Assembly: GCA_049976845.1 (NCBI GenBank)
Contig: JBMFHL010000011.1
Span: 1 to 24,141, forward strand
Source of the DNA: Candidatus Micrarchaeia archaeon
GTDB taxonomy: Archaea > Micrarchaeota > Micrarchaeia > Micrarchaeales > CABMGC01
Length of the DNA: 24,141 nt
Direction: 5' to 3'
Positions 11,307 through 15,148 of this stretch are shown here, one piece after another. The stretch's first letter is position 1. Every line of letters starts with the position of its first letter. Position numbers and translations under genes: made by a program. Under the pieces are notes generated by a model. The model was given only the letters and a program-made list of their open reading frames with translations. It did no database searches and had not been told where the DNA came from.

Positions 11307-11972
11307 ATGCAGCAGGACCAATTCTACAATGAAAGGCAGGCACTTGTTGACTATTTAATTTCGCGCGGCTCTCTTAGGACAAAGGAGGTTATAGAAGCTT
11401 TTATGAATGTGCCAAGGCATCTGTTTGTAGGCAAAGAGGAGGTAGATAATGCGTATAAGGATATGCCATTGCCAATACTCAAGGGTATCACCATATCTCA
11501 ACCTTCGGTAGTGGCTACAATGATTGAAGCTCTTGGCATAGAGAAAGGGGACAAAATACTTGATGTAGGCACTGGTAGCGGATGGGCTGCCGCATTGCTT
11601 GGATATTGCACTGGCAAGGATGGGATAGTAGTCTCTATTGAAGAAGATATGTATGTGGCAGAATTCGCGCGCTCCAACCTGAAAAGCCTTGATATAGAGA
11701 ATGTTGAAGTTATTATAGGGGATGGCACTGCAGGTTACGGAGATAAAGCACCTTATAATGAGATAATTTACGACGTGGCTATGCCAAAAATTCCAATCTC
11801 TGTCCTAAAGCAGCTGAGCATAGGCGGAGTCCTTATAGCGCCTGTCGGAGAAGAGGGCATGCAGGAGCTAGTTAGGATAGAGAGGAAAAAAGAGGACAGA
11901 TTCAATGAGGAAAAACTTGGTAGTGTGGTTTTCACCTGTGCATTCGGCAAATTCGGATTTGCACCGAGATAA
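11307..11972 (+). CDS. pcm: Protein-L-isoaspartate O-methyltransferase-like
   Basis: Motifs VPRHLFV, AY.D.PL, TISQP, DVGTGSG, GDGT.GY...APY and QLSIGGVLIAPVG. Confidence 0.88.
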   Translation: MQQDQFYNERQALVDYLISRGSLRTKEVIEAFMNVPRHLFVGKEEVDNAYKDMPLPILKGITISQPSVVATMIEALGIEKGDKILDVGTGSGWAAALLGYCTGKDGIVVSIEEDMYVAEFARSNLKSLDIENVEVIIGDGTAGYGDKAPYNEIIYDVAMPKIPISVLKQLSIGGVLIAPVGEEGMQELVRIERKKEDRFNEEKLGSVVFTCAFGKFGFAPR

Positions 11973-11973
11973 T

Positions 11974-12870
11974 TTACTTCCTGCTCACTTTTTTCTCTAT
12001 TTCCAAAAGCAAGTCTATTATAAAACCTGCGATTATTAGCAATATGCCTGTGATGAAAAGCATAAACGCTATTAGGGACCTTCCTATCAAGGTGAATGAC
12101 CCTGACATTATATAATTTATTAAAACATATATCCCAAGCGCAAGGCCGGCAATTATGAATATTAACCCTAAACCTCCAAATATTAGCAGCGGGCTGTAGT
12201 CCCTGGCAAGCCTTATCATATGAGATACCACGTTGACACCGTAGAAAAACTTTGATTTTGTGAGCTTTGACTCACCATACTTCCTCGGATAATAATTTAT
12301 TGGCACCTCCATTATTTTATAGCCTTTCTTAGCCAGCTCTATTGCGAATATGCCTGCATGGCCTGCCCTATACGGCTCGACATCCTTCACACTTTCGTAT
12401 GCAGACCTCCTCATCACAAAAAGCCCTACAAGGAAGTCGTGAATGTTTGTGTTGTAGAGCTTGTTGAATACATTCGATATTACAGAATTTCCAAATTTTA
12501 TATAGCTGCTCATCGCATCTTTCTTTATGTGAGACAGCCTGTTACCGAGAACTAGATCGGCCTTTCCGCTCTCTATGAGTTTTATCCCTTTGAATATGCC
12601 TTCTATGTCGTGTGTACCATCTGCATCTATGCTCGCAAGTATGTCTCCGTGTGCATGCTGCAAGCCAAGCAGCACTGCTTTTTCTACACCCCTGTCGTGC
12701 TGTCTTATTACTGTTGCACCGGTAGACCTTAGCCTTTCCTCGTATTCCTTGCTGCTCTTGTCCACTATAATAATTTCCGGATCCTTTATCCTCCTCCTTA
12801 TGCTGTCTATTAAGCCAAAAACAGCTTCTTCTTCTATTGTTGGTATTACAATGCTGACTTTAGGTTCCAT
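11974..12870 (-). CDS. GT2 glycosyltransferase, polyprenol/dolichol-phosphate glycosyltransferase-like, with two C-terminal TM helices
   Basis: Motifs VSIVIPT, IIIVD, DADGTHD, DLVLGNR and EVPINYYPRKYGESKL, then two hydrophobic helices. Confidence 0.9.
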   Translation of the reverse strand: MEPKVSIVIPTIEEEAVFGLIDSIRRRIKDPEIIIVDKSSKEYEERLRSTGATVIRQHDRGVEKAVLLGLQHAHGDILASIDADGTHDIEGIFKGIKLIESGKADLVLGNRLSHIKKDAMSSYIKFGNSVISNVFNKLYNTNIHDFLVGLFVMRRSAYESVKDVEPYRAGHAGIFAIELAKKGYKIMEVPINYYPRKYGESKLTKSKFFYGVNVVSHMIRLARDYSPLLIFGGLGLIFIIAGLALGIYVLINYIMSGSFTLIGRSLIAFMLFITGILLIIAGFIIDLLLEIEKKVSRK

Positions 12871-12919
12871 TTAATCCTCACTTTAATCGAGTATTCCGCT
12901 ATGACATAAGGGTTTTGCC

Positions 12920-13140
12920 CTTATAAACTTATCGCGTGCGGACCTTCTCCGCCAACGAGGTCGGCGGTATCCCCGCACTTGGTAAGCCTTTTTGCGAGTT
13001 GCTGTGCATCTCCACAAACTTCCTACATACTTCTTCGTTCAGGAGATCTGGGTTAACTTGCAGCCCTGTCTGTCGCAGATTGCTTGCGAATGCAAGCAGC
13101 CCCGTCACTAGGGCATTCAGCGAGAGGTAGCGCTCCATTA
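12920..13140 (-). ncRNA. Putative omega/reRNA (TnpB guide RNA scaffold) with IS200/IS605-type right end; boundaries approximate
   Basis: Directly follows the tnpB C-terminal motif. Stems: GCCCT/GGGGC, TGCTTGC/GCAAGCA (13081-13098), nested TGCAAGTT/AACTCGCA and ATCTCC/GGAGAT, and a terminal hairpin CCGCCGAC-CTC-GTTGGCGG (12949-12967) followed by AGAAGGTCCGCAC. Confidence 0.6.
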
Positions 13141-13212
13141 TGTTAATAGCCGAATTAAGGTCTCTTTCTATGCGGTTGCCACACTCGCACTCTTTTATTT
13201 TTAATTTGCGTA
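12929..13212 (-). pseudogene. tnpB: IS200/IS605-family tnpB 3' remnant (Zn-finger end and RuvC-III, open through the right end)
   Basis: Extending the 12929-13138 frame upstream gives IRKLKIKECECGNRIERDLNSAINIMER, which matches the TnpB CxCG...(D)RDxNxAxNI signature. An in-frame stop lies just upstream and the rest of the gene is absent. Confidence 0.8.
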
Positions 13213-13232
13213 TTTATGTTTTAGGTGATTTG

Positions 13233-13757
13233 ATGAAAATTGCAATAGGAACTACAAATAAGCTCAAGGTAGATGCAATCACATCTGCATTGAGACCGAT
13301 TTTTAGGGATGCGGAATTTGTGTCTGCAAGTGTGGAATCCGGAGTTAGCGATGATCCAAAAGGTGATGAAGAAGGCATAAGAGGCGCATTAAACAGGGCA
13401 AGAAATGCGATGGATAAGGAGCATGCGGATATGGGTGTTGGCCCAGAGGGGATTACTTCAAAGAACAGCTACGGCACTTTTGTATACGGCTATGTAGTTA
13501 TAGTAGATAAAGAGGACAGGATAGGCATTGGCGCAAGCGCAAAGGTCATGCTGCCTGACAAATTGGCAAAGATGATAGATTCCGGAGATGGGCTTGCAGA
13601 TGCTATTGCAGAGCTCTCAGCAAAAACAAAAGAACAAGTTAGGACAGAGCTTGGCACCAATGGCATATTGACAAATGGCATGTACGATAGGAATAAGGAA
13701 TTTGCAGATGCGGCTTTGTGTGCAGCGGCCAGATTCATAAACAAGCTATATGAATAA
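13233..13757 (+). CDS. yjjX: Non-canonical purine NTP phosphatase (ITPase/XTPase, YjjX/DUF84)
   Basis: Motifs IAIGTTNKLKV, VESGVSDDP, GALNRARNA, GVGPEG and G..GILT.G..DR. AGGTGA RBS places the start at 13233 rather than 13140. Confidence 0.9.
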   Translation: MKIAIGTTNKLKVDAITSALRPIFRDAEFVSASVESGVSDDPKGDEEGIRGALNRARNAMDKEHADMGVGPEGITSKNSYGTFVYGYVVIVDKEDRIGIGASAKVMLPDKLAKMIDSGDGLADAIAELSAKTKEQVRTELGTNGILTNGMYDRNKEFADAALCAAARFINKLYE

Positions 13758-13993: not shown

Positions 13994-14288
13994 GTTATCA
14001 CCAAATCTTACAATCTATAATTGCATAGTAGGTTTTTTAAACACATGCAAAGTATATTGGAGCGTGCGCAGGTTTTAAATAAACTTGCTAGAAGAGGAGC
14101 TAAAGAAAAACGCCACTTTTTGTTTTCTCTATAAAGGCTAAAAGTCCGCTTCTTTAGTTCGATTAGATTTCTGTAATTCACTACTTAAAGCTTAGGGATA
14201 TTTTTGCATTTTTTATGCTGATTTTATGAGCAATTTCTTTTAAAAAAAGGTATAAATATGGTAAAGGTTATTTTTATAAGGTGTTGGC

Positions 14289-14975
14289 ATGGCGAACAGA
14301 ATAATGTCGCATGGGAATAACGATAGTGGCTATATTTTACAAAGAGAGCTGGAAAAAGAGCTGTATGGGATAATTCCTAACAAAATGGCAAACCGTGCAG
14401 AAGTGGCAAGATTGATTATAAGTTATATTAACACCATTGAAAGCGATGGAGGGTATAAAAAGCTAAAAGAGATAATAGATTTATCGAGGTCATTAGAACG
14501 TCCTATTTTCTATTTCAGTGCTATTTTTAAAACAAAAGATGTTGAGAGATTAGTAAGTAAAGAGGTTATAGAGCTTGCAAAACTATTAGGTAGTTATTCC
14601 GCCTATATCTATTTCGATGCTATTGCAACAACAAAGGATAGCAAAGGATTAACAAGCAACGATGTCATAGAGCTTGCAAAGCTATTAGGAGATATTTATT
14701 CCGATCCGTACTTCCTTGCTATTGAAATGACAGGCAAGGTTGAATTACTAAAAGATAAAAGGATATTCAGAAATGTAGAACGCATAAAGTTATTGACTAG
14801 GGATGCTGCCTATGCCTACTTTAGAGCTGTTGCAGATACAAACGGCACATTACTAAATGATGAAGGGATATTAGGAAACATAGAATCTATAAAAATTATG
14901 AATTTATTAGTTGATGCCGAATCTGTTTATGGATATTTAATGACTATTGCAAATAAAAATATACTGAGAAAGTAA
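14289..14975 (+). CDS. Hypothetical protein with ~33-aa helical repeats
   Basis: 228-aa AT-rich ORF with repeated YFxAI...VIELAKLLG units. The DNA repeat ATAGAGCTTGCAAA occurs at 14568 and 14667, 99 nt apart. Confidence 0.75.
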   Translation: MANRIMSHGNNDSGYILQRELEKELYGIIPNKMANRAEVARLIISYINTIESDGGYKKLKEIIDLSRSLERPIFYFSAIFKTKDVERLVSKEVIELAKLLGSYSAYIYFDAIATTKDSKGLTSNDVIELAKLLGDIYSDPYFLAIEMTGKVELLKDKRIFRNVERIKLLTRDAAYAYFRAVADTNGTLLNDEGILGNIESIKIMNLLVDAESVYGYLMTIANKNILRK

Positions 14976-15040
14976 TAGGGGATTCTGACAAATTGAAAAT
15001 CTTTTCTTCATTATTAAATATAATCTTTCTTTAAAAGTTC

Positions 15041-15148
15041 AGCCCCAGGAGGGAATTGAACCCTCGGCCTCCTGTTTTCCTGCGCTTCTTGCCCAAGCTT
15101 CTTTGAGAAGCTTACGAGACAGGCGCTCTACCACTGAGCTACTGGGGC
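15041..15148 (-). tRNA. tRNA-Thr(CGT) with a 36-nt intron at 37/38 (intron 15077-15112)
   Basis: Acceptor GCCCCAG/CTGGGGC, discriminator T, D arm GCTC-AGTGGTA-GAGC, anticodon stem CCTGT/ACAGG, loop CT-CGT-A^A, T arm GAGGG-TTCAATT-CCCTC. Mature length is 72 nt. Confidence 0.95.

Follow-up and report, generated by a model that had tools for sequence, protein, structure and literature searches.

In TnpB systems, the guide of an omega-RNA is the 3′ flank of its own element, and the natural target is the element-free donor joint. Cas14/Cas12f proteins are found in DPANN archaea. As described in the parts of Meers et al. 2023 that deal with these RNAs (PMC10055086), omega-RNAs overlap the tnpB 3′ end and the right end (RE) of the element, and gene-less derivatives resembling palindrome-associated transposable elements (PATEs) frequently code for omega-RNAs that depend on a TnpB supplied in trans. 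In the relevant parts of two further papers, TnpB is reported to process its own mRNA into omega-RNA (PMC10278001) and TldR proteins are presented as nuclease-dead, TnpB-derived, RNA-guided repressors (PMC10705468). In Halobacterium, a probable sense overlapping transcript RNA (sotRNA) was described in a 120-bp truncated tnpB pseudogene, and the RNA was speculated, in the section of Gomes-Filho et al. 2015 on this case, to explain the retention of the pseudogene (PMC4615843). Truncated tnpB remnants and gene-less elements keeping the guide-RNA part are already known in the literature. Here, we studied positions 12900 to 13192, on the minus strand, of a 24,141-nt stretch of DNA from a Candidatus Micrarchaeia archaeon (contig JBMFHL010000011.1; the whole stretch is referred to as the window). 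These 293 nt hold the 3′ part of an IS200/IS605-family tnpB element. A previous reading of the letters, called here the sequence-only reading, had proposed that they encode a stand-alone guide RNA.

A tnpB remnant without a left end in the GT2-yjjX gap

The gap hosting the remnant lies between a GT2 glycosyltransferase gene (11974-12870, minus strand) and a yjjX-like gene (13233-13757, plus strand). The genome of the window, of which the assembly is 90% complete, is denoted G000, the contig of the window C11 and the further contigs of G000 by other C numbers. On the minus strand, a single open frame of 94 codons runs from 13213 to 12932 (IRKLKIKECECGNRIERDLNSAINIMERYL...AEKVRTR*) and ends with a TAA stop at 12931-12929. 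By themselves, the family-profile scores of this frame were marginal. Pfam PF07282 matched with E=0.0027 and 18.3 bits (cut-off 26.3) over profile positions 42-60 of 60, and NCBIfam guided_TnpB (NF040570) with E=0.019 and 14.3 bits (cut-off 100) over positions 363-389 of 389. A 438-amino-acid open reading frame (ORF) of G078, a one-contig genome of the same order, matched C11:12935-13201 with E=3.3e-44 and 84% identity over ORF residues 349-437. This ORF carries PF12323, PF01385 and PF07282 and scored 188.7 bits with guided_TnpB (cut-off 100). With these domains and this score, it is a bona fide TnpB, and we regard its match as decisive for the identity of the window frame.

The kept tnpB part corresponds to ECECGNRIERDLNSAINIM plus a 69-residue tail. 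The C-terminal zinc ribbon and RuvC-III signature (CxxC ... DRDxNAAxNI-like) is seen as CECGNRIERDLNSAINI at 13189-13139. The HTH/WED, REC, RuvC-I and RuvC-II parts of a complete TnpB are absent from the frame, which stays below the curated cut-off; only the residues corresponding to 350-437 of 438 remain. The first 7 codons of the 94-codon frame, up to 13213, are not homologous to tnpB. The frame was also considered as the gene of a small protein, and this candidate was rejected on account of the non-homologous first 7 codons, of a 2-nt deletion that shifts the frame of the tail in the C27 copy and of a TAG in the corresponding region of the G053 copy.

Both boundaries were established from alignments. 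In the DNA alignment of the window with the intact G078 element, homology starts at 13192 (GAGTGCGAGTGTGG...). Metagenome contigs with diverged, longer tnpB copies part from the window just past 13192, their loose ends continuing as tnpB, and the window sequence upstream of 13192 has no relation to the insertion sequence (IS). The RE lies at 12900 (...GTCATA), since all family copies diverge completely past ...TTATGTCATA. This boundary was set from three close copies in G000 and about twenty in 8 of 41 relatives, with unrelated flanks. The window copy therefore shows what defines an IS200/IS605 RE, namely a subterminal hairpin and a conserved terminus common to copies with unrelated flanks. 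The hairpin of the left end (LE), CCCTCAACTTCGTTGAGGG, was searched with up to 5 mismatches. It was not found in C11; matches were obtained at C12, C23 and C42, and a diverged LE hairpin (CCCCCAATATCGTTGGGG(G/A)) was found at tnpA-type elements in C1 and C3. These 293 nt are an IS200/IS605-family tnpB remnant, which explains the unannotated intergenic gap. The features of the locus are as follows.

12900..13192, minus strand: whole remnant, 3′ 293 nt of an IS200/IS605-family tnpB element, 5′-truncated and without LE (alignment to the G078 intact element and sister copies)
12929..13192, minus strand: last 87 tnpB codons and TAA stop (translation; 84% identity to G078 TnpB residues 349-437)
13136..13192, minus strand: second CxxC of the zinc ribbon and RuvC-III motif, ECECGNRIERDLNSAINIM (PF07282 positions 42-60/60; guided_TnpB 363-389/389)
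13081..13098, minus strand: upstream scaffold hairpin UGCUUGC-AUUC-GCAAGCA inside the tnpB tail (97.6% of cells paired, as compared to 19-45% in slid controls)
12925..12989, minus strand: nested stems P1 AGGCUUA/UAAGUUU (rich in G.U), P2 GUGCGGG/UCCGCAC and P3 hairpin CCGCCGAC-CUC-GUUGGCGG (fold; pair counts on 23 copies)
12900..12924, minus strand: terminal RE hairpin P4 AUAAGGGC-AAA-ACCCUUAU and end GUCAUA, likely the end recognised by TnpA (copies; helix 4, 93.4% paired)
12920..12927, minus strand: TATA-box-like motif TTTATAAG inside the RE, 57-50 nt before the GT2 ATG and almost invariant across 23 copies (sequence; putative promoter)
12871..12899, minus strand: 29-nt flank between the RE and the GT2 ATG, would-be omega-RNA guide and in any case GT2 leader (sequence, 16-mer search)
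13193..13232, no strand: 40-nt spacer of 80% A+T without relation to the IS; presumably the promoter region of yjjX, and sole candidate promoter for the remnant (alignment, sequence)
11974..12870, minus strand: GT2 glycosyltransferase gene, directly downstream of the remnant and co-oriented (PF00535, E=1.2e-17; orthologues 74-79% identical in 5 same-genus genomes)
13233..13757, plus strand: yjjX-like NTPase (DUF84) gene, divergent from the remnant (PF01931, E=9e-40; found in none of the six other genus members)

The sequence-only reading had placed a TnpB/IS200-IS605 remnant in this gap, with most of the nuclease gene deleted, the RNA-encoding 3′ part retained with its pairing and an AT-rich stretch upstream. 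All of this was borne out: the profiles it had suggested for the fragment gave sub-cut-off matches to TnpB models, the match to the C-terminus of the full-length G078 TnpB settled the identity, the covariance model and pair counts described below agree on the pairing, and the spacer at 13193-13232 has the composition listed above. It had, however, ended the element at a GC hairpin plus GGTCCGCAC (about 12932). The copies with differing 3′ flanks that it had proposed to look for, found in G000 and in relatives, define the RE at 12900, 36 nt further, and include one more hairpin. Likewise, the nested stems that it had seen in the roughly 200 nt following the TnpB motifs are present, but this stretch is still coding sequence for the C-terminal tail of tnpB and not a non-coding spacer.

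Conserved structure and related copies

Folding of the 293 nt gave -100.7 kcal/mol for the sense strand (z=-3.37) and -96 kcal/mol for the antisense strand (z=-2.58). In the DNA, the P3 inner hairpin, CCGCCGAC-CTC-GTTGGCGG, is found at 12967-12949 with a G.U pair, g12962.u12954, and is enclosed by the P2 arms GTGCGGG (12978-12972) and TCCGCAC (12942-12936). P1 is rich in G.U and therefore pairs only on the sense strand. The P4 hairpin reads ATAAGGGC-AAA-ACCCTTAT at 12924-12906, and the TTATGTCATA sequence of the RE end recurs after the LE hairpin in intact copies.

When RNAalifold was applied to the alignment of 23 RE copies, the terminal hairpin alone was predicted. Pairs were therefore counted on the structure taken from the window fold, a choice that biases the counts towards that structure. 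On this basis, 87.9% of the cells of the four helices P1-P4 were paired across the 23 copies, as compared to 30-52% in slid controls, and 9 pairs were changed on both sides. For P1-P3, 84-87% of the cells were paired per helix, with 8 pairs changed on both sides. In the upstream hairpin (13098-13081), 3 of the 7 pairs were changed on both sides in the G165 copies. Using the RE covariance model, the window copy scored 112 bits, as compared to 115 and 114 bits for its sisters. The terminal helix is at least as well explained as a single-stranded DNA hairpin for TnpA, which would yield the same covariation signal. The conserved structure of the four 3′ helices and of the upstream hairpin thus comes with covariation, and the location of the stretch, across the tnpB 3′ end and the RE with a guide to be taken from the 3′ flank, is that of an omega-RNA, although this latter evidence is purely positional.

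These results agree with the sequence-only reading in several respects. Its GC hairpin with a G.U pair is real and is enclosed by the GTGCGG/CCGCAC stem; the g12962.u12954 pair is the product of a window-specific C-to-T change, and a second wobble in P2 involves a T at 12942 that is also window-specific. The covariation that it had proposed to examine is there, with compensatory changes across the 23 copies and three compensatory pairs in the upstream hairpin. Its alternative GACCT/AGGTC pairing exists in the window copy but depends on the same private T of P2, sisters reading GGG--C, GGGCC or GGACC at this place, and being window-specific, it was treated as due to chance. The comparison with Rfam that it had advised, in particular with HEARO, did not yield any family. 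Over 12700-13400 and with E up to 10, only chance-level matches of at most 16.2 bits were obtained, and the HEARO threshold was not reached; a scan of the whole window at gathering thresholds detected rRNA and two tRNAs and no family at the remnant.

In G000, sister copies of the element are found in C27 (95% identity by search) and C12 (93%). The RE covariance model detected six RE modules in G000 and matches in 22 of the 151 genomes of the order. Intact copies and mini-elements start with an LE of the form ...TTAATA(C/T)TT...GAATT-CCCTCAACTTCGTTGAGGG-TTGGATTTTATGTCATA, and from the flanks of the LE, the transposon-associated motif (TAM) would be about TTAAT. The same RE is also found behind IS200-type tnpA genes at four loci (L015, L016, L019 and L005). 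Many of the copies lack autonomy, among them mini-elements of about 170-235 nt consisting of LE and RE (L023, L025, L027) and internally deleted tnpB copies, as in C12 of G000 and, similarly, at L013 and L020 in relatives. The C12 copy (G000:C12:20770-21171) carries an in-frame ORF of 90 codons in which the first 61 and the last 28 tnpB codons are fused. Its deletion junction is located just upstream of a 115-nt RE module, and a tRNA-like 3′ end is found about 110 nt downstream.

At two loci, G000:C3:8808-8910 (L005) and one in G001:C34 (L026), the P2/P3 module is inverted relative to the terminal hairpin, behind a tnpA pseudogene; the covariance model matches these REs on both strands (47.5 and 47.2 bits). 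G000 further contains, at C28:2784-3005 and upstream, a second TnpB mini-element that is not related to this family. It shows an LE-like hairpin, CCCTACC-TGAA-GGTAGGG, and a frame for the last ~95 TnpB residues (PF07282, 49.6 bits) followed by a structured 3′ region, and sequence like this 3′ region directly follows a window-family RE in G001:C49 (L024). In G027, a 96% complete genome, eight RE/omega-RNA modules were counted, in mini-elements and internally deleted copies, and the best TnpB match was a fragment (E=3.2e-22); in that genome as well, the nuclease seems to have disappeared before the non-autonomous copies. The IS DNA of L029 (G078) is 88.4% identical to that of the window, the two genomes belonging to different families of the order, while GT2 proteins are 74-79% identical within the genus. 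This comparison suggests a recent horizontal spread of the element among these archaea. We found no description of this IS family, in literature searches that were not aimed at it in Micrarchaeota by name.

Proposed history of the locus and possible present role of the remnant

At the GT2 loci of the five same-genus genomes (L060-L064), the order PCMT, DUF763, GT2 on one strand is always observed, and the remnant is absent. In the window, GT2 is inverted and abuts PCMT (11307-11972, plus strand) with its 3′ end, the two stop codons being 1 nt apart, and a search for DUF763 in G000 did not detect it. The yjjX-like gene has counterparts, 69% and 57% identical, in other genera of the family. By this gene order, the remnant sits at a deletion or rearrangement breakpoint, and such a position by itself suffices to explain the truncation. 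The empty allele that the sequence-only reading had hoped to find in relatives was not recovered, as no alignment was obtained between the window flank and the regions upstream of GT2 in the five same-genus genomes. The best local candidate for an empty site (G003, ATT-AAGTGAG) was equalled in 196 of 1000 shuffles and was rejected.

The remnant is probably a dead, 5′-truncated copy of a tnpB-only (IS1341-like) element of the IS200/IS605 family, that is, an ordinary fossil. An intact element, oriented like GT2, would first have inserted 29 nt before the start codon of this gene. The LE, the tnpB promoter, about 1.05 kb of tnpB and the neighbouring DUF763 gene would later have been lost in a deletion or rearrangement, and the same event would have placed the lineage-specific yjjX-like gene beside what was left. 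The remaining 13192-12900 (minus strand) would then comprise the last 87 tnpB codons and the RE, a stretch whose equivalent in intact copies is predicted to encode the omega-RNA scaffold and to carry the hairpin recognised by TnpA. GT2 has lost its ancestral upstream region, so that its transcripts must now start inside the remnant or pass through it. The present effect of the remnant would be in cis only, with GT2 transcribed either from the TATA-like TTTATAAG inside the RE or by read-through across the remnant.

The remnant cannot transpose or make TnpB. Searches of G000 with a TnpB hidden Markov model, with the PF07282 domain and with the G078 protein gave no full-length TnpB and four fragments alone: the window frame, the N-terminal piece of C12, a piece in C13 at a contig end and that of C28, which belongs to another TnpB family. 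A lack of any cognate full-length TnpB is what the sequence-only reading itself had named as speaking against a guide RNA. All matches to TnpA (PF01797) in this 90%-complete assembly either have internal stops or are fragmentary. The TnpB cut-off is reached in 87 of the 151 genomes of the order versus 1 of the 7 of the window's genus (G004, 99.4 bits), the others having pieces. As for a target, guide 16-mers starting at 12900, 12899 and 12898, compared to the genome with up to 3 mismatches, retrieved their own site and unrelated 3-mismatch matches alone, and no TAM-flanked match to the guide was found in G000. Because the LE is missing, excision is impossible, and there is no donor joint or empty donor site for a fixed guide to cut.

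The changes accumulated by the window copy were then compared with those of other copies. It is 95.5% identical to the C27 copy and 88.4% to that of G078. Over the whole alignment, private changes number 13 in the window, 2 in C27, 8 in G078, 7 in G088 and 20 in G053. Where four or more other copies cover the alignment (130 nt), six changes are private to the window. That at 12954 keeps its pair as G.U and that at 12913 opens the closing pair of P4, while that at 12992 falls in the conserved GCAGAAAGG linker and is an A unique to the window among the five close copies compared. The other three fall outside the four tested helices, at 12916 (P4 loop), 12945 (between P3 and P2) and 13029 (upstream). 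The six changes form a neutral-looking mix. Since the copy is young and its private changes are about as many as those of other copies, the intact pairing carries no weight as a sign of selection. Finally, no run of T longer than 3 occurs from 13192 to the start of GT2, so that a transcript started in the spacer would run on into GT2 with no discrete guide-RNA end. The remnant thus presumably no longer acts as a guide RNA.

Other explanations were weighed against that of a dead copy. There is a small but real chance that the RE was kept because it supplies GT2 with a promoter, the BRE/TATA-like GATAAG-TTTATAAG (BRE, B recognition element) at 12933-12920, or -63 to -50, or with an obligatory 5′ leader. 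The RE indeed stops 29 nt before the GT2 ATG, DUF763 and a different intergenic region are found upstream of GT2 in 5 of 5 same-genus genomes, and the GT2 reading frame is intact, with 74-79% identity to its orthologues, so that a promoter is needed. Moreover, no TTTAWA motif occurs at -40 to -26 from the GT2 ATG, the modal TATA position of the genome, and a metagenome contig (X1 record 3) has the same RE-GT2 junction with 4 differences in 280 nt. The near invariance of TTTATAAG in 23 copies would also fit a promoter, but it is explained by this motif being the 5′ arm of the terminal hairpin, to which TnpA would bind. The box, at -57, is outside the mode of -40 to -26 given by a histogram of TATA positions at 351 crude gene starts, which neither favours nor excludes it. 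Genes downstream of other copies are in mixed orientation; this comparison used crude calls of the first ORF of at least 90 residues downstream of 27 RE copies, and it is noisy, as the real GT2 of the window was not the nearest ORF called, so that it carries no weight either way on an outward promoter. In addition, about 60 nt would suffice for a promoter, not 293. An incidental promoter or leader effect on GT2 is counted within the explanation by a dead copy, and seems to be the only plausible present-day role of the remnant.

The stand-alone guide RNA of the sequence-only reading, that is, a functional orphan omega-RNA that would be transcribed from the AT-rich spacer and taken up in trans by a TnpB, or by a nuclease-dead relative, made from another locus such as the C27 copy, is improbable. 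Its scaffold is intact, the G.U-rich P1 pairs on the sense strand only, two private changes in the stems leave G.U pairs, the sequence upstream is a spacer of 80% A+T and one IS copy is incompletely assembled; in the passages cited above, PATEs that often encode omega-RNAs needing TnpB in trans (PMC10055086) and the probable sotRNA of a 120-bp truncated tnpB pseudogene (PMC4615843) offer precedents. The proposal is nevertheless disfavoured, because neither a full-length TnpB nor a Cas12f-like gene turned up in the assembly and 6 of the 7 genomes of the genus have fragments alone, because there is no LE and thus no donor joint, because the guide has no second target in the genome and because the copy is too young for its intactness to mean selection. 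It is also opposed by the absence of the remnant from the locus in relatives, by private changes that open the P4 closing pair (12913) and alter the conserved GCAGAAAGG linker (12992), by the lack of a terminator before GT2 and by the fact that, according to the part of PMC10278001 on processing, TnpB normally matures omega-RNA from its own mRNA. That the 13192/13193 join is chimeric, the real genome having a full element or none at this place, is barely credible. IS repeats do break the assembly at several contig ends with 77-nt overlaps. A search of sequencing runs for the window listed no RNA run and three DNA contig sets from one hot-spring sample with small shares of its sequence, and among these no independent contig spans 13193-13232; yet the junction joins the IS to unique sequence and is not inside a shared k-mer, the contig extends 11 kb on either side, and the GT2-RE junction is seen independently (X1 record 3). 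Some observations do weigh against a dead copy. The assembly breaks inside this very IS family, with three contig ends stopping within it: the end of C27 matches the window copy exactly over 77 nt, and C23 and C42 each share 77 nt of the LE with the start of C12. These overlaps imply at least one more LE-bearing copy, with its middle unassembled, which could be an intact tnpB. The window scaffold is preserved like those of its sisters (112 vs 114-115 bits), two window-specific stem changes (12954 and the T at 12942) yield G.U and not mismatches, and the passage of PMC4615843 on Halobacterium argues that truncated tnpB remnants with an apparent sense RNA were retained for that RNA. A remnant kept because it works, transcribed from the bidirectional AT-rich spacer with its scaffold loaded in trans by the TnpB of an unassembled sister or of another cell's element, would have only a slim chance of being real; its guide would lie in the GT2 promoter or leader, and it would be an immobile stand-alone guide RNA in a reduced DPANN genome.

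Elsewhere in the window, the region 14001-15148 has a low G+C content (0.32-0.33 vs about 0.42) and contains a 228-residue ORF with internal repeats (14289-14975). It adjoins a 108-nt tRNA match (15041-15148, minus strand), and may be the remnant of an integrated element at a tRNA gene. Rfam placed tRNA genes at 118-265 (148 nt) and 15041-15148 (108 nt), probably with introns, and ARAGORN detected no tRNA. In another contig, G000:C48 (752 nt), the same ~77 nt, encoding a pilin-like signal peptide (MEYLMTYGWAILIIAVVLGAL), are present at the start and at the end; the contig results from a repeated gene start that was assembled in tandem or as a circle.

Comparison with described TnpB systems

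As an annotation result, the explanation of the gap as an IS200/IS605 tnpB scar at a rearrangement breakpoint is a routine one. Its modest value lies in documenting the decay of TnpB elements in very small archaeal genomes, where the guide-RNA/RE module outlasts the nuclease: the assembly of G000 has six RE modules and no intact tnpB or tnpA. If the remnant were transcribed and bound by TnpB, it would be a natural trans-acting, immobile omega-RNA and a step towards domesticated RNA-guided regulators. In this respect, the TldR systems described in the cited part of PMC10705468 resemble the proposed orphan guide, being a domesticated use of a TnpB-type guide RNA outside transposition. However, the protein gene stands beside the guide in TldR systems, whereas here no TnpB-like ORF beyond fragments was found.

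The TnpB/omega-RNA (also right-end RNA, reRNA) modules of ISDra2 and of the Geobacillus stearothermophilus ISGst, in the sections of the cited work on them, share with the present family a scaffold that overlaps the tnpB 3′ end and the RE, a short conserved terminal motif after the subterminal hairpin with differing 3′ flanks, and gene-less or tnpA-less derivatives with the same ends. In contrast to these modules, the remnant comprises the last 293 nt alone, with no LE, no intact tnpB or tnpA in the assembly and no Rfam family, and is known from its sequence. The haloarchaeal IS1341-type sotRNAs, in the part of the work that describes them, are similar in being an archaeal sense-overlapping region at the tnpB 3′ end, with a truncated remnant keeping that part. 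Transcript data and intact tnpB genes in the genome accompany the haloarchaeal case, whereas letters alone describe the window remnant. As far as the cited passages describe PATEs and derivatives of the IS200/IS605 family resembling miniature inverted-repeat transposable elements, they are protein-less carriers of omega-RNA. A PATE has both ends and is mobilisable, whereas the window copy is immobile without its LE; it is the sister copies of the window (C12, L023, L025, L027, L013 and L020) that are of the PATE kind.

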